DNA of 12,497 nt from a virus. Taxonomy: Duplodnaviria > Heunggongvirae > Uroviricota > Caudoviricetes. The translations under genes and the position numbers were made by a program. The notes under the pieces were generated by a model. The model worked only from the letters and a program-made list of their open reading frames with translations, was not told the origin of the DNA and ran no database searches. Positions 1-11,036 of the stretch are shown here, piece after piece (positions within the stretch are counted from its first letter, which is position 1; each line of letters begins with the position of its first letter). The stretch lies in the IMG/VR virus record IMGVR_UViG_2859799533_000004; one strand, written 5' to 3'.

Positions 1-1230
1 ATGAGCAGAGCACTTAACAAACTGAGCGATACACAGCTGAGGAAAATCAACGGCACACCCGCCCAAAAAACAGCCTTTCTTAATGACGGTGGAAACCTGA
101 GCGTCAGGCATTCAACCAGCGGCCTTTTAACCTGGTATTTCACCTACAGGGCCGGAACGGGAAGGGGAGCACGACCGGAACGGATTAAGCTGGGAAATTA
201 TCCTGATCTGAGTCTGAAAGCTGCCAGGGAAAAAGCGGCACAGTGTCGCGCTTGGCTTGCTGAGGGGAAAAATCCACGTCATGAGATGAATTACACCGTA
301 CAGAAAGCGTTAAAGCCCGTAACGGTTGGCGATGCGCTTACCTACTGGCTTGAGTCTTACGTAAAGGAAAACCGCGTGGATTATGCCGCCCTGAAAAAGC
401 GCCTTAATAATCACGTAATACAGCACATTGGTGCTATGCCGCTGGATAAATGCGAGCTACGGCACTGGCTGGCCTGTTTTGACCAGGTGGCAAAGCGAAC
501 GCCTGTTACTGCCGGATTCTTGCTACAGACGTGCAAACAGGCGCTTAAGTTCTGCCGGAGGCGGCGCTATGCAATCAGCAACGTTCTTGATGATATGAGT
601 GTGGCGGACGTTGGGAAAAAACCGGATATAAGCGAGCGTGTCTTAAGCACCAAAGAACTTGGCGAATTATTGCAGGCACTGGACAAAAAAATATTTTCCC
701 CTTACTACGTCGCACTAATCCGCCTCCTGATTGTTTTCGGATGCCGGACGGTAGAACTGAGGTTATCGGAGATCAGCGAGTGGGATTTTACCGAAATGCT
801 CTGGACCGTGCCGAAAGAACACAGCAAAACGAAGGTGGCAATATTCCGGCCCATACCGGAAGCAATACTGCCGTTCGTCACGCAGCTGGTGGAGCAGAAC
901 AGGCACACGGGCTTATTGCTGGGGGAAGTGAAACAGGAAACAAGCGTGTCGCAGTACGGCAGATTAGCGCACAGGAGGCTAAAACACCCTCACTGGTCAC
1001 TGCATGACATCCGGCGCACCTTTACAACGATGCTGAACGATTTAGGCGTGGATCCTCACGTCGTGGAGCAGCTTACAGGTCATCAGATGCCAGGGATGCA
1101 ACGAGTCTATAACCATTCCCGTTATCTGGATGCGAAACGTGACGCGCTGGATATGTGGACGGAGCGGTTAGGGATACTGGCGGGAACACATGAAAACGTA
1201 ACCACATTGCCAATAGCCAGAGAAATATAA
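1..1230 (+). CDS. int: Tyrosine-type site-specific integrase, P4 family (N-terminal arm-binding domain plus C-terminal catalytic domain)
   Basis: Full 409-aa ORF. N-terminus has the P4-integrase arm-binding pattern (LNDGGNLSV...WYFTYR...IKLGNYPDLSLKAAREKA). C-terminus carries catalytic motifs HDIRRTF (HxxR), LTGH and VYNHSRY (nucleophile Tyr). Confidence 0.92.
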   Translation: MSRALNKLSDTQLRKINGTPAQKTAFLNDGGNLSVRHSTSGLLTWYFTYRAGTGRGARPERIKLGNYPDLSLKAAREKAAQCRAWLAEGKNPRHEMNYTVQKALKPVTVGDALTYWLESYVKENRVDYAALKKRLNNHVIQHIGAMPLDKCELRHWLACFDQVAKRTPVTAGFLLQTCKQALKFCRRRRYAISNVLDDMSVADVGKKPDISERVLSTKELGELLQALDKKIFSPYYVALIRLLIVFGCRTVELRLSEISEWDFTEMLWTVPKEHSKTKVAIFRPIPEAILPFVTQLVEQNRHTGLLLGEVKQETSVSQYGRLAHRRLKHPHWSLHDIRRTFTTMLNDLGVDPHVVEQLTGHQMPGMQRVYNHSRYLDAKRDALDMWTERLGILAGTHENVTTLPIAREI

Positions 1231-1594: not shown

Positions 1595-1783
1595 GTGTTA
1601 AGCACAGATCGCTTTATACGTGAAAAAGAATGTCAGCAACTTACAGGCCTGAGCCGCTCATGTCGGTACCGCCTGGAAAAAGCCGGACAATTCCCATCAC
1701 GGCGTAAGCTGGGCGGTCGTTCCGTTGGCTGGTCTTTATCCGAAGTTCTGGCATGGAAGGACAGCTGCGAGGCAGTTCACTAA
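1595..1783 (+). CDS. alpA: AlpA-family (P4 Vis-like) small DNA-binding regulator/excisionase
   Basis: C-terminal 62 aa of ORF 1427..1783 match the AlpA/Vis pattern (LSTDRFIREKECQQLTGLSRSCRYRLEKAGQFPSRRKLGGRSVGWSLSEVLAW). Start placed at in-frame GTG 1595 after AAAGGGGG; the ATG at 1427 would add an N-terminal extension across the repeat arrays. Confidence 0.8.
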   Translation: MLSTDRFIREKECQQLTGLSRSCRYRLEKAGQFPSRRKLGGRSVGWSLSEVLAWKDSCEAVH

Positions 1784-2542: not shown

Positions 2543-2848
2543 TTACTCTGGTTCTTTGGTCTTGCGGCGCTGGAGTTCTTCACGTGCGACAGTGACGAGC
2601 TGCCCGATCTCCTCGGCGGCTTTGATTCCGAGTTTTTCCACCTGCGCCAGTGCATCGAGCGAAGAAACCAGGGGATTTTCTCCACTTCCTTCTGCCTGGC
2701 GCCGGGCGATCTCACCGCGTACAGCCGTAACTATAAAATTCGCTTTAGTTTCCCCTGGCTGTAGGGATGCCTCAATGCCACTCACTACTTCATGTGGAAA
2801 TCTGGCATTCAGTTGCTGTGACTTATTGTTAACAGAACTCCTGGACAT
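2543..2848 (-). CDS. Putative transcriptional regulator, possibly ribbon-helix-helix type; candidate island repressor (or antitoxin)
   Basis: 101-aa protein from ATG at 2848 with strong SD (GGAGGTG, 5-nt spacer). N-terminal pattern NARFPHEVVSGIEASL...TKANFIVTAVRGEIARRQ fits a beta-strand plus two helices. It is transcribed divergently from the main operon across the operator palindromes. Confidence 0.55.
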   Translation of the reverse strand: MSRSSVNNKSQQLNARFPHEVVSGIEASLQPGETKANFIVTAVRGEIARRQAEGSGENPLVSSLDALAQVEKLGIKAAEEIGQLVTVAREELQRRKTKEPE

Positions 2849-2891
2849 GTTTGCACCTCCCATTAATAACGGGATGCAGTGTAATACAAAA

Positions 2892-2946
2892 GTGAATACC
2901 AAAAAAGACTTGAAATGGTATTCACCTAAATGTAATGTGAATACCA
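2892..2946. promoter_or_regulatory. Operator region: three copies of GTGAATACCA forming two overlapping perfect 10-bp-arm palindromes between the divergent genes
   Basis: GTGAATACCA at 2892-2901, TGGTATTCAC at 2916-2925 (inverted), GTGAATACCA at 2937-2946; read directly. Confidence 0.6.
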
Positions 2947-2984
2947 CAAGTGCTGATACATGCAATTCAGCAATTGAAACGACG

Positions 2985-3017
2985 AAGCCCCGCACTGTTG
3001 GAGCAGTAACGGGGCTT
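2985..3017 (+). promoter_or_regulatory. Imperfect long hairpin in the leader of the rightward operon
   Basis: AAGCCCCG(2985-2992) pairs with CGGGGCTT(3010-3017), extended by CACTG/CAGT. No following T-run, so it is not a classic terminator. Confidence 0.3.
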
Positions 3018-3053
3018 CTAACCACCAACGATAACGAGAGTATCGAGGTAGCT

Positions 3054-3260
3054 ATGAGAAATCATACCACACACCCGCAAGGGCGGGACTCGCACAACCT
3101 GAATAAATACATCTGGCGTTTTATCGCCCTGAGCACTGCACAACCGCGCGTGATTACCATTGAGGCCACCAGCGAACAGGAAGCACGCCAGCAATCCCCG
3201 GCTGGCTGCGTGATGGTATTCGCTGCCCGTATTCGTCAGGAGGTGTGCCATGTGCAATAA
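3054..3260 (+). CDS. Small protein (68 aa), first gene of the rightward operon; tentatively Icd-like (P4 cell-division-inhibitor family)
   Basis: ATG 3054 with SD GAGGT (4-nt spacer). Protein-like sequence YIWRFIALSTAQPRVITIEATSEQEARQQ...VMVFAARIR. The family assignment is from memory and unverified. Its stop overlaps the next start. Confidence 0.5.
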   Translation: MRNHTTHPQGRDSHNLNKYIWRFIALSTAQPRVITIEATSEQEARQQSPAGCVMVFAARIRQEVCHVQ

Positions 3261-3474
3261 CACCCGTCCGGACGCAGCCGCCGAAGCCATCATAACGCTA
3301 ATGCATGCGCTGATTGATATTTCTGTTATTGCTGACAGGGCGCATAAACACGCAGCCAGAGAATCAGAATGCATCTTCCATTATTTAGCATTTGTGCAGC
3401 TAAAAGCCGATCAGGCACTGGATAAGGCCGGAAAAATTATCATGGCTGATGTGCAGGAGGTGCACCATGCATAA
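3250..3474 (+). CDS. Hypothetical protein (74 aa)
   Basis: ATG 3250 preceded by AGGAGG (6-nt spacer); overlaps the upstream stop by 11 nt and the downstream start by 8 nt. Confidence 0.6.
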   Translation: MCNNTRPDAAAEAIITLMHALIDISVIADRAHKHAARESECIFHYLAFVQLKADQALDKAGKIIMADVQEVHHA

Positions 3475-3832
3475 CCTGTCAATTTCTGACCTTAACAGCA
3501 TTCAGTTTGACGAGAAATTTACCGGGCAGTTGCTGGTCAATGTGGAGAACGGGCGCATAGTGCGTAATTATCACCTGCCGGATGGTGCAATTGCCGGAAG
3601 CGTTGAAGCATTGCTGGAACTGGCGGAACGTGCGCGACTGATTAAGCCGTCAACGAGCCATCACGATGATGATCTGCATTTTACCGGATGTATGGTGAGT
3701 CACTACGAAAACGGCGTCGAGGTATCCTGCGAACGGCTGCGTGATGATTGCTGTTTCGGCACACTGCCGGAATTTATCGAGTTGCTGACCAGTTGCGGTT
3801 ATCAGGTCATTCAGGGGGGTAAACATGCGTGA
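3467..3832 (+). CDS. Hypothetical protein (121 aa)
   Basis: Start placed at ATG 3467 (MHNLSISD...) because AGGAGG sits 7 nt upstream; the ORF-track start at 3449 lacks an SD. Coupled to its neighbours by ATGCATAA and CATGCGTGA overlaps. Confidence 0.6.
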   Translation: MHNLSISDLNSIQFDEKFTGQLLVNVENGRIVRNYHLPDGAIAGSVEALLELAERARLIKPSTSHHDDDLHFTGCMVSHYENGVEVSCERLRDDCCFGTLPEFIELLTSCGYQVIQGGKHA

Positions 3833-4058
3833 TGATCGTTTTAATTCCCTGAAACAGGAATTTTCCGGCGTTCCTGATGATGCGGCTGATGCGCTTTCGT
3901 CAATGCCAGAACTTATTAGAGCGGCTTTTTTCTTACTTTCCACGAGAGAATATAAATCAACGGGGCTTGATGTACTGAATATCGCCGCCGATTATGCGGA
4001 ATATGTGGCAGAGGCGCGTTACAGAAGAAAATTTCCTGAGGATGTAAGCCATGCGTGA
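3825..4058 (+). CDS. Hypothetical protein (77 aa)
   Basis: ATG overlaps the upstream stop (ATGCGTGA); begins MRD. Confidence 0.6.
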   Translation: MRDDRFNSLKQEFSGVPDDAADALSSMPELIRAAFFLLSTREYKSTGLDVLNIAADYAEYVAEARYRRKFPEDVSHA

Positions 4059-4284
4059 TATTTACCACGAAACAATAGACCGCGCATTTCTTGCACTTTC
4101 TCACAGTGAAAACATGCTGGAAATATTGCGCATATGGCTTGAAACACTTGGCGACAATGAACGCGACAAACAAAAATCAAGAATTGCCACGGCATTAATA
4201 ACGCTTCTTGAGCCTGTAATAATGGAACTGCAAGAAATAGATCTATTGCACGACAGATATAAAGAACAGCACACCGGAGAATAA
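4051..4284 (+). CDS. Hypothetical protein (77 aa)
   Basis: Same ATGCGTGA overlap junction as the preceding gene; also begins MRD and has the same length, suggesting a diverged tandem paralog. Confidence 0.6.
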   Translation: MRDIYHETIDRAFLALSHSENMLEILRIWLETLGDNERDKQKSRIATALITLLEPVIMELQEIDLLHDRYKEQHTGE

Positions 4285-4289
4285 AAATA

Positions 4290-4589
4290 ATGAAACTTAA
4301 ATATTCTGGCTTAACTGCCAGTGGCAACACTCACCCTAAATTTACGCGCGGTGATATTTACCGCGACCAGTACGGCGGCACGGTAATGATTAAGGGCGTG
4401 GAAGAACGGCGTGTAACCTACCGCCGTGAAGGTTACGAATATGATTGCGTGATGCCTGTTTATCAGTTCCGGCGTGATTTTTCTCTGGTACAGACCGCGC
4501 CGCATAACGTGCCCACCAGCAACGCCAGGGCACGGGCAAACATCCAGAAGCTGAAAACCATGGTTAACGGATTCAGGGGCAAGAAATGA
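4290..4589 (+). CDS. Hypothetical protein (99 aa) immediately upstream of, and coupled to, the replicase gene
   Basis: ATG 4290 with GGAGA upstream; its stop overlaps the rep start (ATGA). Confidence 0.65.
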   Translation: MKLKYSGLTASGNTHPKFTRGDIYRDQYGGTVMIKGVEERRVTYRREGYEYDCVMPVYQFRRDFSLVQTAPHNVPTSNARARANIQKLKTMVNGFRGKK

Positions 4590-5884
4590 AAAGCGCACCG
4601 AACTTAAAAAAACAGCCTTACGACAAGATGACCGAAGTCATTATTTTTGCGGGTAGTGATGCCTGGGCACATGCGAAACAGTGGCAGGAACAGGACGGGC
4701 GACTGGCTGGCGATAATGTGCCTCCCGTTGTGCTGGCTGATGATCAACTGGATGAACTGGCAGACCTGAGAATCATCGACGAGGGGCGCTATTGTGTCCG
4801 GCTGTACAAGGCAGGCCACATCAGGCCATCAAATATTAATGCCATTGCGCACAAGCTGGCGGCGGCGGGTGTAACTGATGCGAATTATTACCCCGAAGGG
4901 ATGCACAGCCATATGCGGGAGAACTGGCGCGAATACCTGGAACGGGTGCGCGGGAAAGAGCCGGCGGAAGAAAAAAACCACCAGCGAAAAACCACGCTAC
5001 CGATGAGCGTTGGATCTACCGGATACGACACGCAACTGGATTACGTGGTTAAGGGGATTATTCCGGCGGTATCGCTATGCAGCATATACGGAGCTAGCGG
5101 GTCCTATAAATCATTCCTTGCCGGATCGTGGGCGTGCCATGTTGCCACTGGTCGCCAGTGGGGAGGCCGCAGGGTTGCACATGGTGCGGTTCTCTATGTG
5201 GTTGGTGAAGGCGGTATAGGTGTTCCGCGTCGTGTAAAAGCCTGGGAGGTTGTGCACGATGAGCAGGTGAAAAATCTGTATCTGGTAAACCGCCCCATCT
5301 TTCCGGCTGCCCCGCTTGATGTTGATGAAATGGTTATCGCTGCCCGTCAGGTGGAGCGGGAAACGGGTAAACCTGTACGCATGATTATTCTGGATACGCT
5401 GGCGCGTTGCTTTGGTGGGAATGATGAAAATGATTCCCGTGATATGGGGGCGTTTATCCGTGGTTGTGACGAACTGAAACGACGCACAGGGGCCACGGTG
5501 CTGGTGGTTCACCATTCCGGCAAGGATGAGACGAAAGGCGCGCGCGGTTCCAGTGCATTTCGTGCTTCGCTGGATGCTGAATACCGGATACGCAGGGAGG
5601 ACGCAGGAAGCGAAGCGCTGGTTATCTCATGCACCAAAATGAAGGACGCGGAGGAACTCAAAGAAGCCGCATATGACTTACGCGTGGTGGAGCTTTTTAC
5701 CGACGCTGACGGTGAATTAATCACGTCGCTGGTGGTGGTGGATGATCCGCGCCCTCCTGTTGAACTGGAGCGCATCGAGGAGGCAGGGAACAAGACGGAA
5801 AACCATACCGCGCTATGGGGTGCATCCGTTCACGCACACAGAACGGCGACAAGTGCACGATCCCGCTGTTACGTGATGACATGA
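4586..5884 (+). CDS. Replication protein: RepA/DnaB-like RecA-fold P-loop ATPase (AAA_25-type helicase core) with ~150-aa N-terminal extension
   Basis: P-loop region IYGASGSYKSFLAGSWACHVATG (5090-5113), Walker B VRMIILDTLARCF, and the family-typical VLVVHHSGKDETKGARGSSA motif. The Walker A is non-canonical (Tyr where the Gly before Lys is expected). Confidence 0.82.
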   Translation: MKSAPNLKKQPYDKMTEVIIFAGSDAWAHAKQWQEQDGRLAGDNVPPVVLADDQLDELADLRIIDEGRYCVRLYKAGHIRPSNINAIAHKLAAAGVTDANYYPEGMHSHMRENWREYLERVRGKEPAEEKNHQRKTTLPMSVGSTGYDTQLDYVVKGIIPAVSLCSIYGASGSYKSFLAGSWACHVATGRQWGGRRVAHGAVLYVVGEGGIGVPRRVKAWEVVHDEQVKNLYLVNRPIFPAAPLDVDEMVIAARQVERETGKPVRMIILDTLARCFGGNDENDSRDMGAFIRGCDELKRRTGATVLVVHHSGKDETKGARGSSAFRASLDAEYRIRREDAGSEALVISCTKMKDAEELKEAAYDLRVVELFTDADGELITSLVVVDDPRPPVELERIEEAGNKTENHTALWGASVHAHRTATSARSRCYVMT

Positions 5885-5985
5885 AAAAGCTGGGGTATGA
5901 AATGAAAAACTTCCGGCGCTGGCTGTACAAGCTGGAAAAAGATGGGGTTATTCGTATCGATGGGGATGATGTAGCGCCGCTATAA
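5881..5985 (+). CDS. Small ORF (34 aa) overlapping the rep stop (ATGA); may be a frame-shifted C-terminal part of the replicase rather than a separate gene
   Basis: The +1 frame from 5764 reads as protein-like sequence (..GDKCTIPLLRDDMKKLGYEMKNFRRWLYKLEKDGVIRIDGDDVAPL) whereas the annotated rep tail (HTALWGASVHAHRTATSARSRCYVMT) does not. Confidence 0.3.
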   Translation: MKKLGYEMKNFRRWLYKLEKDGVIRIDGDDVAPL

Positions 5986-6177
5986 AAGTGAGGAGCAAAA
6001 GCGAGGGGGATAGAAAGAGGGCCAAAATTAGCCCGCTCTCCCTCACTTTTCGACCTGTATACATCCTCAAAAGTGAGGGGTAAAAAAATACTTATGAAAC
6101 ACACACATAGAAAAACCGAAAATCCCAACTGCGACGAAGTGAGACGCTTGAAAAAGTGAGGCGAAAAAGTGAGAGGT
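5984..6177 (+). repeat. Iteron cluster, probable replication origin, with central AT-rich unwinding segment
   Basis: AAAAGTGAGG at 5984, 6069 and 6152; AAAAGTGAGA at 6166; variants AAAAGCGAGG (5997) and GAAGTGAGA (6135); an inverted copy CCTCACTTTT (6041-6050); AT-rich stretch 6080-6130. Directly downstream of rep. Confidence 0.7.
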
Positions 6178-6185
6178 TGCGAGAA

Positions 6186-6437
6186 ATGACCCAAAAACGC
6201 AGAGACAGAACAGAGCCAAAATATAAAGCGTTAGACATGACTGAGCACACCTTAAAGGTGGCAATCAGAACGATAGACCGCCACACGCGGGAAGGATACG
6301 CGAAGGAACATCCCGACCTGATAAGCGCATTCATGACCACGGCGGCGGCAAACTTTGCCACGCTGACAGAACGGGAGATTGCCGAAGCGGAACAGGTAAC
6401 AACCATCAACGTTAAAACCGGAGAGGTGGAATCATGA
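6186..6437 (+). CDS. Hypothetical protein (83 aa) overlapping the origin and coupled to ssb
   Basis: Start at ATG 6186 within ORF 6156..6437; stop overlaps the ssb start (ATGA). Confidence 0.5.
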   Translation: MTQKRRDRTEPKYKALDMTEHTLKVAIRTIDRHTREGYAKEHPDLISAFMTTAAANFATLTEREIAEAEQVTTINVKTGEVES

Positions 6438-6856
6438 CAGCACAGATAGCAGCTTACGGGCGGCTGGTGGACGACCCGCAGGTAAAACAGACCAGCAAGG
6501 GCACACCAATGACGCTGGCACGTATGGCGGTCCCCCTTCCGTGCAGCCAGGCAGATGACGGAACGGCGACGATGTGGTTATCCGTCCTGGCATTTGGCAG
6601 ACAGGCCGAAGCACTGGAAAGGCACCGCAAGGGTGAACTCCTGAGCGTGGCGGGTAACATGCAGATCAGCCAGTGGACTGGGCAGAACGGAGAAACGCGG
6701 CAGGGCTGGCAGGTTATCGCAGACAGTGTAATCAGTGCGCGAACGGCGCGACTGGGCGGCAAAAAAGGTCAACAGGGCCAGGCTACTGACGCGCTGAACA
6801 GGGCAAAACAACAGGCGGGGAATGATGATCCGTACGGGGATAACATACCGTTTTAA
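6434..6856 (+). CDS. ssb: Single-stranded DNA-binding protein (SSB, OB fold with acidic C-terminal tail)
   Basis: N-terminal pattern MTAQIAAYGRLVDDPQVKQTSKGTPMTLARMAV and C-terminal ...DDPYGDNIPF, which parallels the E. coli SSB tail DDDIPF. Confidence 0.85.
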   Translation: MTAQIAAYGRLVDDPQVKQTSKGTPMTLARMAVPLPCSQADDGTATMWLSVLAFGRQAEALERHRKGELLSVAGNMQISQWTGQNGETRQGWQVIADSVISARTARLGGKKGQQGQATDALNRAKQQAGNDDPYGDNIPF

Positions 6857-6872
6857 GCGACGAGTGACAGAA

Positions 6873-6894
6873 GCCGGAGCAATCCGGCTTTTTT
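6873..6894 (+). terminator. Rho-independent terminator after ssb
   Basis: GCCGGA-gcaa-TCCGGC hairpin followed by TTTTTT. Confidence 0.7.
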
Positions 6895-6990
6895 ACGGGG
6901 CCTCCTGGCGGGGTGGGCCTGAACACGGGGCGGGAGGCGCGGAAAAAAGCGCATTTTTGTGATTTTATCGTCATCATCATCATGAGCGTA
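6895..6990 (+). other. Degenerate cos-like element (S1), a diverged paralog of the cos region at 9335-9420
   Basis: ACGGGGCC..TGG...ACGGGGCGGGAGGCGCGG aligns with cosQ/cosN of S2, but the cosN core is altered and 2 nt shorter; CATCATCATCAT parallels CACCACCACCAC downstream of S2. Confidence 0.45.
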
Positions 6991-7075
6991 ATTTATTGTT
7001 TTTAATTGTTTTGATGCAAAAAAGATGATGGTTATGGTTAATTTTTGTTCGACATCTTTGCAGGCAGATAAAAAA

Positions 7076-7271: not shown

Positions 7272-7478
7272 ATGGCTGAAGAGAAAAAAGGCGGTGTTTC
7301 GGTGTACATAAGCCCCGAAATCGTGGAGGTGCTCAAGCAGCGCCACAAAAAAAACTATGAGGCTGGCGTGGCGGCTGGACTGGATCCGCTGATGACGCCG
7401 GAGCCGTCGATAGGTTCACTTGTACGCTCTTATTTACTTGCGGCGCTTGGGATGCATAAAAATTATGGGGGTGAATAA
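7272..7478 (+). CDS. Hypothetical protein (68 aa), first gene of the capsid operon
   Basis: ORF with GAGGA upstream; its stop overlaps the capsid gene start (TAATG). Confidence 0.55.
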   Translation: MAEEKKGGVSVYISPEIVEVLKQRHKKNYEAGVAAGLDPLMTPEPSIGSLVRSYLLAALGMHKNYGGE

Positions 7479-8533
7479 TGGCAGGCAAAGCAACGGCACT
7501 TAACACTCACCAGCTTTTTGCGTACCTGAATCGCGGGGATATTGCGGAATTTAAATTTAGTCCGCTGTTTACCACGCTGTTTTTCCCGAAAGTAGCGACA
7601 TTCAACACCCAAAACATCATGCTGGATAACCTGGACACCGAAGAAGTCACTATGTCAGCGTTTTGCTCGCCTATGGTTGGTAGCCAGGTACAGCGCGATA
7701 AAGGGTACGAAACCAGCACGATTAAACCTGGCTACATGAAGCCAAAGCACGAAATCGATCCAACAAAAACCATCATGCGCATGGCTGGAGAAGATCCGGC
7801 ACAGCTTAACGACCCAACCTATCGCCGTATGCGCCTGATTACTGGCAACATGCGCCGCCAGGTAAACGCTATTAAAGCGCGTGTTGAATGGCTGGCGGTA
7901 AATGCGGTAACGACCGGAAAAAACATCATTGAGGGCGAAGGCATAGAACGCTATGAAATCGACTGGAAGATGCCGGAAAACAACATCATAGAGCAGGCCA
8001 AAGGCCGTAAATGGTCCGAGCAGGACAAAGAAACCCACGATCCAATCTATGATATCGAGCTTTATGCGGATCAGGGCAATTGCCCCGCAAACGTCATGAT
8101 TATGGGCGCTGAGGTATGGCGCACGTTACGCAGCTTTAAAAAATTCCGCGAACTGTACGATCTTTCCCGTGGTTCAGAATCCGCCGCAGAACTGGCCTGT
8201 AAAAACCTGGGCGAAGTGGTGAGCTTTAAAGGCTATCTGGGCGATATTGCCCTTATCGTCTATTCCGGCAAATACGCCGACAGCGACGGCACCGAAAAAC
8301 ATTTCCTTGAGCCTGATTTGCTGGTCTTGGGCAACACCAACAATAAAGGGCTGGTTGCTTATGGTGCGATTATGGATCAGGAAGCGGTAAGAACGGGCGC
8401 AACGCAAAACATGTACTACCCGAAAAACTGGATTGAGGACGGCGATCCGGCGATTGAGTACGTGCAGACGCACAGCGCACCGCAGCCGGTGCCGGCAGAC
8501 ATTCGCAAATTTGTTACCGTCAAAATTGGTTAA
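7478..8533 (+). CDS. Major capsid protein, phage lambda gpE family
   Basis: 351 aa. Shares multiple blocks with lambda gpE as recalled: FKFSPLF..LFFP, PGYMKPKHE, EDPAQLNDPTYRRMR, RGSESAAEL..LGEVVSFKGYLGDIALIVYSGKY, YPKNW, GDPA. Similar length to gpE (341 aa). Confidence 0.85.
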   Translation: MAGKATALNTHQLFAYLNRGDIAEFKFSPLFTTLFFPKVATFNTQNIMLDNLDTEEVTMSAFCSPMVGSQVQRDKGYETSTIKPGYMKPKHEIDPTKTIMRMAGEDPAQLNDPTYRRMRLITGNMRRQVNAIKARVEWLAVNAVTTGKNIIEGEGIERYEIDWKMPENNIIEQAKGRKWSEQDKETHDPIYDIELYADQGNCPANVMIMGAEVWRTLRSFKKFRELYDLSRGSESAAELACKNLGEVVSFKGYLGDIALIVYSGKYADSDGTEKHFLEPDLLVLGNTNNKGLVAYGAIMDQEAVRTGATQNMYYPKNWIEDGDPAIEYVQTHSAPQPVPADIRKFVTVKIG

Positions 8534-8544
8534 CGGGGGATTCT

Positions 8545-8880
8545 ATGAACACTCCATACATTGAGTTATTTGCAGGCAGTCAGCAGGTATCCACGACGCT
8601 GGTACATTTTGCCGCTGATGCTGGCGTCATTCAGGAATTTACCCCGCTGATGCTGGCGGACAATGGCGAGTTTAAGCCGTGGGATGGTCAGGCGTCCGGA
8701 AAGGCTGTTTATCTGACTTCGTACCCCGTGGACACGTCAAAGCAGAAATCAGCACAGTGCTACAAGACGGGGATCTTTAATATCGCCGCCGTGAACTGGC
8801 CCGAGAGCGTCGACACCGATGCGAAAAAATGCGCCGCCTTTGCGGGTTCTGGCGTATCCGTTCAGCCGCTGGCCCGATAA
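8545..8880 (+). CDS. Head decoration protein, phage lambda gpD family
   Basis: 111 aa versus 110 aa for gpD. Shared motifs TPLMLAD, WDG, YKTG.F, WPE, KK.AAFAG. Confidence 0.78.
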   Translation: MNTPYIELFAGSQQVSTTLVHFAADAGVIQEFTPLMLADNGEFKPWDGQASGKAVYLTSYPVDTSKQKSAQCYKTGIFNIAAVNWPESVDTDAKKCAAFAGSGVSVQPLAR

Positions 8881-8892
8881 GCAGGGGGAACG

Positions 8893-9306
8893 ATGGCAAC
8901 GAATGAAAGCATCATGACGCTACCGCTGGCGAGTAAATTTAAAGCCGAAGCGCGGGCAATGGCTGACAGAGGTTTATCAACCTACGAGGCCGTATATCAA
9001 CTCAACAAACTGGAAGAGCAGGACAAGCCGCGCGCTGATGCGATTATGGCGCTTCATGAGCATAACGACTATCAGCCGCTGTTACGTGCAATGGCAAACG
9101 TGCCTTGTATCGATGTTGGTACGGCTAAAAGCATCCTTAGCATGACCATAGAGCAGGAACGCCAGAAGGTTGCGCCGGAGCTTACCGCAGCCTTTGAAAA
9201 CTTTATGGACATGCACAGCCCGCAAGCCGTTTCAGCTGGCATGGCATACGACGGCAGAAACCCGGGCGATGATGGCGACATCGAGAGCATACTGAAAACC
9301 ATCTGA
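8893..9306 (+). CDS. Hypothetical protein (137 aa), last gene of the capsid operon, immediately upstream of cos
   Basis: ORF with GGGGGAA SD; no family recognised. Candidate packaging accessory protein by position only. Confidence 0.6.
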   Translation: MATNESIMTLPLASKFKAEARAMADRGLSTYEAVYQLNKLEEQDKPRADAIMALHEHNDYQPLLRAMANVPCIDVGTAKSILSMTIEQERQKVAPELTAAFENFMDMHSPQAVSAGMAYDGRNPGDDGDIESILKTI

Positions 9307-9311
9307 GACAA

Positions 9312-9334
9312 GGCCGGAGAAATCCGGCTTTTTT
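9312..9334 (+). terminator. Rho-independent terminator after the capsid operon
   Basis: GCCGGA-gaaa-TCCGGC hairpin plus TTTTTTT; nearly identical to the terminator at 6873-6894. Confidence 0.7.
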
Positions 9335-9420
9335 TACGGGTCCTTTCCGGCATATGGACCCGTTACGGGGCGGCGACCTCGCGGGTTTTCGCTATTTATG
9401 ACGTTTTTCCGTGAAGGTGA
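9335..9420 (+). other. Lambda-type cohesive-end site (S2): cosQ, cosN and the start of a lambda-like cosB
   Basis: ACGGGTCCTTTCCGG...GACCCGTTACG then GGGCGGCGACCT (9367-9378) CGCGGGTTTTCGCTATTTATGA matches the lambda right-end/left-end junction as recalled; followed by CGTTTTTCCGTG, resembling lambda R3. Confidence 0.85.
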
Positions 9421-9468
9421 CACCACCACCACTTGATTAATATTTAACCATGCAGTTAAGGTAACATT

Positions 9469-9909
9469 ATGATTGATAAAGCTTGTTTTGTAAGTCAGCA
9501 GGAAATAGCTGAACATTTCAAGGTTAACAGAACCACTATTCGCGCATGGACCAAACAGGGGATGCCGTATCTTAATGCGGATCGCGGAAAGTCTGGCGGT
9601 TATCACATCGGGCATACATTGCTTTGGTCTTCAGGTAAAAGCCGTCTTGAGGCCATCAGATATCACGTAGAAACCAGTGCGCTGGAAAAAATTATGTTTG
9701 CCAGGCTGCTTTCATCTGAGCGTGACGAGTACTCCAGTGAAGAAACAGAACATAGATTTGATGAAGGTTTACAGATTTACGGCTACTCACCGGAAGAAGT
9801 GAGCAAAGCGCGAAATAAAATGGCCGGCTTTCTGGCTGGGTGGCGTCATGCCGTAAGCGTTCGCCGTGCCAGCATGGAACAATCAGTCGTTACAGAACAG
9901 CAAAGTTAA
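9469..9909 (+). CDS. Small-terminase-like protein with Nu1-type N-terminal winged-HTH; candidate island packaging-specificity factor
   Basis: N-terminus VSQQEIAEHFKVNRTTIRAWTKQGMPYL parallels lambda Nu1 VNKKQLADIFGASIRTIQNWQEQGMPVL; the C-terminal half is unrelated to Nu1. Gene sits directly downstream of cos, as Nu1 does in lambda. Confidence 0.72.
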   Translation: MIDKACFVSQQEIAEHFKVNRTTIRAWTKQGMPYLNADRGKSGGYHIGHTLLWSSGKSRLEAIRYHVETSALEKIMFARLLSSERDEYSSEETEHRFDEGLQIYGYSPEEVSKARNKMAGFLAGWRHAVSVRRASMEQSVVTEQQS

Positions 9910-9939
9910 AAATCACTTTCTGTTACGCCATCAAATACG

Positions 9940-10090
9940 CAATACAACAACCACGTATTTTTTTAAAACTATTTGATTCAATTAGCATTTTTTTATTTTT
10001 AGCATCAAAAAAACACTATCAGGTTGTTGTATTGCTCTTTATTTTTACTTAGTTATCAAATGGATATGACAAACAATTAAACAACAACCT
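9940..10090. promoter_or_regulatory. cosB-like region for the inverted cos: three ACAACAACC sites in alternating orientation with an intervening partial IHF motif
   Basis: GCAATACAACAACC (9940-9953, +), GGTTGTTGTATTGC (10022-10035, inverted, perfect 14-bp IR), ACAACAACCT (10081-10090, +); TATCAAatggATA at 10054-10066 matches WATCAA of the IHF consensus but not its TTR end. Confidence 0.4.
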
Positions 10091-10103
10091 CCCTCTAAAA
10101 AAG

Positions 10104-10169
10104 CTCATAAATAGCGAAAAACCGCGAGGTCGCCGCCCCGTAACGGGCCATAATTCCAGGAAGGACCCG
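10104..10169 (-). other. Second lambda-type cos site (S3) in inverted orientation
   Basis: Reverse complement reads CGGGTCCTTCCTGG..GGCCCGTTACGGGGCGGCGACCTCGCGGTTTTTCGCTATTTATGA; the cosN 12-mer is identical to S2 (complement at 10127-10138), and the flanks are about 85-90 percent identical to S2. Confidence 0.8.
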
Positions 10170-10202
10170 ACGACACCAGACTATCAGAACGATGGGGGCA
10201 CA

Positions 10203-10484
10203 ATGACAGAAGCCGAAATACTGCGATTAATCCGCCGCGTTGCCGGAATCAGCCAGCAGGCCGACGAACAGACCACGCAGCCGGACAGCGTGACCGCCGA
10301 AAATTATGTTCGTGTGGTTGCTGAGGTGATTCGCCGTAATGGTATCCAGCTTAATGATGTGGATATGCGCAACATACGGATCCGCGTTCTTGAAATGCTG
10401 GCCTACAATCGCCGCGTGGCACTGTATCGGGAAACGGAGAAAATTACGTACCACTGGAAGAAGCCGGAGCGGTTGCGGCGGTAA
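10203..10484 (+). CDS. Hypothetical protein (93 aa), 3' accessory gene of the island
   Basis: ATG 10203 with GGGGG SD 6 nt upstream; protein-like composition; no family recognised. Confidence 0.5.
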   Translation: MTEAEILRLIRRVAGISQQADEQTTQPDSVTAENYVRVVAEVIRRNGIQLNDVDMRNIRIRVLEMLAYNRRVALYRETEKITYHWKKPERLRR

Positions 10485-10652: not shown

Positions 10653-10931
10653 ACAATCCCCCATTGGGGAGGCTGGGCGGCCTGCTGTGGGCTTTTCCAC
10701 CATTGGTGGAAAGGCGCACATCTGGATCATCATTACGGTGATCAAGGGTATGTAAAACCCACCAGCCTGATTGACATTTAACCGGAAAAAAGCCAGGTAG
10801 CCCCGTTATGGGGATCCCCATATCGACATTAACGCCCCTCATGAATTGGCGCGCTTCCCCCTGGAAAGATGACCCGCCTGTATATTTCTTGTGTCTATTT
10901 GTTCCACGTTGTTTCATACAGTGCAACGATC

Positions 10932-10955
10932 GGTGTAGTTAATGGTGTAGTCAAT
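10932..10955 (+). repeat. Tandem 12-bp direct repeat GGTGTAGT(T/C)AAT
   Basis: Two adjacent copies, 11 of 12 identical, followed by a GCACT-N5-AGTGC dyad, in the region downstream of phoQ. Confidence 0.45.
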
Positions 10956-11036
10956 TTGCGATTTTTAGCACTTTTGCAGTGCAAATCATTTAATTAAATC
11001 AATGGCTTGCCTTGATGTAGTGATAAAAGGACATAT

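Follow-up and report, generated by a model that had tools for sequence, protein, structure and literature searches.

The window, by which we mean the whole 12,497-nt stretch of DNA analysed here, carries an island inserted between roxA and phoQ, whose features are collected in Table 1. The island runs from a tyrosine integrase gene through alpA, a regulatory/replication module and a set of head-related genes to the gene of interest, rpp, which has one cos site directly upstream and a second one downstream. No terminase, portal, tail or lysis genes were found in the island gene content, which fits a classical PICI packaged by its helper. The repeat before phoQ is 84% identical to the sequence just upstream of int in two related genomes, CFT073 included; this repeat probably represents attR of the island attachment site, and attL lies just outside the window. 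An Rfam scan of the whole window revealed no RNA family.

Table 1. Features of the island in the window (positions are those of the window unless residues are given)
Feature	Position	Strand	Remarks
Tyrosine integrase, left PICI end next to roxA	1..1230	+	Pfam Arm-DNA-bind_3 and Phage_integrase; same protein (WP_000085269.1) in CFT073
AlpA	about 1595..1783		
RepA-family helicase/primase	4586..5985		
SSB	6434..6856		
gpE-like major capsid protein	7478..8533		PF03864, E=4e-50
gpD-like decoration protein	8545..8880		PF02924, E=6e-18
137-aa protein	8893..9306		weak match to C-terminal end of head-maturation-protease phrog_53
cosQ of cos1 (TTTACGGGTCCTTTCC)	9333..9348	+	exact match to lambda cosQ; CFT073 cos1 one base different
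cosN cohesive-end sequence of cos1 (GGGCGGCGACCT)	9368..9379	+	same as lambda bp 1-12 and CFT073 cos1
Proposed Rpp-binding site R3-PICI in island-specific cosB	9415..9432	+	bp 48-65 from cohesive end
rpp gene (RppA allele, 146 aa)	9469..9909	+	intact ORF, ATG start
N-terminal wHTH TerS-mimic domain of rpp product	~residues 1-64		
C-terminal helical dimerisation/TerS-clamping region of rpp product	~residues 65-140		
cos2, second cos, inverted relative to cos1	10074..10171	-	cosQ-like 10171-10159, cosN 10138-10127
93-aa ORF between cos2 and attR	10203..10484		phrog_1561 (function unknown), E=4e-54; WP_000133413.1, same protein in CFT073
attR-like repeat, right island end before phoQ	10899..10956		58 bp

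Genomic comparison revealed 99.86% identity between the whole window and an island that E. coli 2017C-4173W12 likewise carries between roxA and phoQ. EcCICFT073 also has this insertion site and these flanking genes, and identity to CFT073 is 94-99% at both ends of the island, int/alpA and capsid-rpp. The regulatory/replication module (~2574-7070) is mosaic relative to EcCICFT073, with matches of about 84% or none; this island type has a RepA-type helicase (466 aa) where CFT073 has a 584-aa primase-family protein. Three head-related proteins are encoded by the island, yet neither a portal nor a terminase; the 137-aa protein is possibly Nu3/scaffold-like. In EcCICFT073, interference persisted when the capsid and decoration homologues had been deleted, and the DNA is carried in full-size capsids (PMC6092414).

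Within the RepA-family gene, a G-run at 5813-5816 holds four G rather than the five of the 99.86%-identical island of NZ_CP030768, and this deletion shifts the frame, so that the 466-aa product is cut to 432 aa with a 56-aa remnant left over. The frameshift may be a homopolymer sequencing error or a real inactivation of island replication; if it is real, the island copy in the window may be inefficiently mobilised even with a functional Rpp. A 1-bp deletion so near to rpp could also be taken to mean that the island is defective and that rpp itself has decayed and lost its function. We regard this as scarcely credible: the rpp ORF is intact and occurs at 100% DNA identity in several genomes among the matches listed, cos1 is intact as well, and the frameshift, lying in a homopolymer, may not be genuine.

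Pairwise protein comparison revealed that the rpp product shares 141 of 144 residues (98%) with CFT073 c1503 (WP_000565609.1 / AAN79972.1, 144 aa), which is encoded at 14660-15094 of the fetched CFT073 sequence, right after the first cos of the EcCICFT073 island. The study that defined the Rpp family named this protein RppA (Fillol-Salom et al. 2019, Mol Cell; PMC6739421). The substitutions D110E, A140V and D141V, together with a two-residue C-terminal extension that gives a tail like RppB-type tails, are the complete set of differences.

Database searches led to the same family. The best PDB match to the rpp product is annotated "Redirecting phage packaging protein C (RppC)", not TerS: 6HLK/6HN7 ranked first in a single-sequence search (E=2.4e-31, residues 2-125) and was matched by a 16-sequence profile at E=5.7e-43 over residues 1-141. 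Homology to the RppA/RppB/RppC family thus spans the full length of the protein. These similarities indicate, with a probability that we put at about 0.93, that the product of 9469..9909 is RppA ("redirecting phage packaging") from a PICI of the EcCICFT073 type. The original prediction of a satellite packaging redirector is borne out by this near-identity to an established one. It had cited the Rpp of E. coli PICIs as an analogue, which pointed in the right direction but left unrecognised that the protein is Rpp itself.

Residues of demonstrated importance are retained. In RppA, the substitutions L51D and F121R abolish TerS binding or homodimerisation and, in addition, phage interference and island transfer, F121 being needed for homodimerisation and L51 for the TerS interface (PMC6739421). 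The window allele has both L51 and F121 and, with them, the C-terminal helical dimerisation region of the Rpps. In 16 enterobacterial homologues (Escherichia, Klebsiella, Phytobacter, Salmonella), 54 positions are invariant, among them F121; L51 is variable, being F or M in two of the 16. Furthermore, the window allele keeps every residue that was modelled to contact DNA in RppC (R21, T22, T23, R25, W27, K29 and K41), and positions 30 (Q) and 39 (R) are the same as in RppA.

The N-terminal part of the protein resembles the DNA-binding domain of small terminases. In pairwise BLASTP, residues 8-71 align with residues 3-55 of lambda Nu1 (NP_040580, NC_001416 191-733) at 30% identity (E=3e-6), and nothing further aligns, the second-best stretch having E=60. 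The PHROG terminase small subunit family phrog_57 covers residues 7-47 only (E=3.4e-8). Residues 6-58 are matched, at E about 0.04-0.14, by PDB chains of TerS DNA-binding domains, among them 1J9I, 6HN7_B and 7LW0. It had been proposed that the first ~55 residues are Nu1-like and the remaining ~90 are not; both statements held and do better than chance, with the resemblance to lambda Nu1/TerS confined to residues ~8-57. The phrog_57 and Nu1 matches support an N-terminal TerS-mimicking wHTH, the fold itself being known from the RppC crystal alone.

Structure prediction was less informative. The AlphaFold2 model built from the 16-sequence alignment was of poor quality: pLDDT averaged 56.7 and was under 50 in the wing region (35-69). 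It placed helices at 71-85, 91-103 and 108-145 with low confidence. Foldseek comparison of this low-confidence model with the PDB returned nothing at E<1, 6HLK included. The model was therefore set aside as evidence, and the structural case is built on sequence homology to RppC, whose structure is solved. A Pfam scan of the product gave generic HTH and Phage_Nu1 matches, all below threshold. The weak HTH/MerR matches at residues 9-45 and the MerR-family proteins among the top, non-significant Foldseek matches might suggest a plain transcription regulator of the MerR/Xis HTH type that serves the island and takes no part in packaging. Every such match falls below curated or significance thresholds, however, and near-identity to RppA, whose packaging function has been demonstrated, together with the position beside cos1, makes a mere regulator most improbable.

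The same N-terminal domain bears on whether the protein could be a stand-alone island small terminase of the SaPI-TerS type, which would bind island DNA and recruit the helper TerL without helper TerS. Its wHTH is like those of TerS DNA-binding domains, and rpp directly follows cos, as nu1 does in lambda. However, the product falls short of Nu1 in length by about 35 residues and lacks similarity to its C-terminal TerL-binding region, and the Pfam Phage_Nu1 family (PF07471) matches residues 8-40 at 14.6 bits, under the 30-bit cut-off, over profile positions 3-36 of 164. The mark of a lambda-type small terminase, namely a Phage_Nu1 match above the gathering threshold that includes the C-terminal oligomerisation/TerL-binding region, was thus not found in the rpp product. 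In addition, transfer of the RppA island needs helper TerS and is lost with TerS escape mutants (PMC6739421, PMC9026076). We consider a stand-alone TerS very unlikely and rejected it, because the Nu1 C-terminal domain is missing and the near-identical RppA requires helper TerS.

The sequence upstream of rpp is that expected next to an RppA gene. The gene lies in a PICI, directly 3' of a lambda-type cos with conserved cosQ and cosN and a non-phage cosB. Apart from a single cosQ base, cos1 of the window equals cos1 of EcCICFT073; between cosN and the rpp ATG the two agree at every base, and this stretch has no relation to lambda cosB. With the first cohesive-end base taken as bp 1, the ATG is at bp 102, as is the rpp start of PICI-C (PMC9026076). 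Exchanges of cosB identified the cosB of cos1 as the RppA-responsive determinant (PMC6739421). The position given for R3-PICI, whose conserved core ACCACCACC lies at 9422-9430, is the published proposal of Murialdo & Feiss for a putative site (PMC9026076), and direct, sequence-specific binding of Rpp-TerS to cosB in vitro is still putative for every Rpp (PMC9026076).

Around rpp, a promoter/terminator scan gave sites no more numerous than in shuffled controls, and we therefore claim no promoter. A GC-rich hairpin followed by a T-run (GCCGGAGAAATCCGGCTTTTTTT) occupies 9310-9332, after the 137-aa ORF, and abuts cosQ; this terminator-like hairpin is absent from the list of the consensus terminator scan. 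A reverse-strand ORF at 9334..9615 was dismissed as a mechanical ORF without support.

Downstream of rpp, the island departs from EcCICFT073. CFT073 has nothing that corresponds to the AT-rich spacer at 9910-10096 (about 27% GC) or to the cosB side of cos2, from which the ACCACCACC core is missing; the cosQ-like and cosN parts of cos2 are conserved. In EcCICFT073, cos1 is the RppA-responsive site required for transfer, and the cos2 at the same position is functional with lambda and phi80, dispensable for transfer and not RppA-responsive (PMC6092414, PMC6739421). Combined with the C-terminal tail of the allele (…SVVTEQQS), a cos2 with an unrelated cosB side and spacer could mean an altered or broadened helper range, which we hold to be improbable. 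If it were so, cos2 might, for example, be tuned to another helper TerS, and the island might use two packaging-recognition routes.

How an Rpp redirects packaging has been worked out with RppA and RppC, from which the evidence for TerS binding, interference and packaging redirection comes (PMC6739421). Genetics, two-hybrid assays, pull-downs and the crystal structure of RppC with TerS(1-98) revealed that Rpp dimers bind lambda/phi80 TerS, and Rpp both blocks phage packaging and promotes packaging from the island cos1 (PMC6739421). In the mechanism published there, the complex of Rpp with helper TerS loses recognition of phage cosB and gains that of the island cos1. Helper TerS is strictly required, and a conserved TerL-binding domain is not found in Rpps (PMC9026076). 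The note made from the sequence alone had offered two mechanisms: formation of heteromers with helper TerS, which is the established mechanism of Rpps (PMC6739421), and retargeting of the large terminase by the protein itself, which, as direct TerL binding by Rpp, is not supported.

What the window establishes is the identity of the protein, the conservation of its key residues and the identity of cos1, cosB included. From the 98% identity to RppA we infer that the window allele acts like RppA, that is, that it binds TerS, blocks the helper and is needed for island packaging. Induction by a lambda/phi80-type cos helper would be the trigger. The C-terminal helices of Rpp, above all the long alpha6 that carries F121, would then bring about homodimerisation. 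Each N-terminal winged-HTH would stand in for a single TerS DNA-binding domain, and the resulting TerS-Rpp2-TerS heterotetramer would have L51 in the interface. Such a hybrid DNA-binding unit would lose the R sites of phage cosB, so that phage packaging is blocked, and would recognise instead the island-specific cosB of cos1 directly upstream of rpp. The TerS partner would bring TerL, which would nick the lambda-identical cosN; this is presumably why helper TerS is essential.

Comparison with related systems places the protein within this scheme. RppC (EcCIEC2733.1; 6HLK, and 6HN7 with lambda TerS 1-98) has, according to the sequence alignment, the same architecture of a wHTH and a three-helix dimerisation region. 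It is 43.65% identical to RppA, has 153 aa, another C-terminal helix sequence and a higher affinity for lambda TerS, and does not form heterodimers with RppA (PMC6739421). Lambda gpNu1 shares the N-terminal winged-HTH (30% over ~55 residues) and is likewise encoded directly 3' of cos; unlike gpNu1, Rpp is without the C-terminal regions for oligomerisation and TerL (gpA) binding, and it has another dimer surface and another cosB. SaPI TerS (for example the TerS_S of SaPI1/SaPIbov1) is likewise satellite-encoded and redirects the specificity of the helper terminase to satellite DNA. It does so by taking the place of the phage TerS in a pac system. Rpp, in contrast, works in a cos system and joins the phage TerS in a hetero-complex (PMC6739421).

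Genes of the rppA/B type are present in 100 of 5,426 complete E. coli genomes (at least 85% nucleotide identity), a quarter of which (25 of the 100) have a gene at least 99% identical to the window allele. RefSeq labels rpp "hypothetical protein" in E. coli 2017C-4173W12, and among the matches listed the same label stands under the match in all but two of 30 rows. The function of RppA is already known, having been published in 2019; only minor allele and mosaic differences are new in the window. The practical value of the result is one of annotation, given that the "hypothetical protein" label persists though both the function and the structure of a homologue were published in 2019. For cos-type E. 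coli PICIs, Rpp is the key tool both for interference with lambdoid helper phages and for their own packaging, and its recognition here marks the window as a mobilisable satellite of the EcCICFT073 type.
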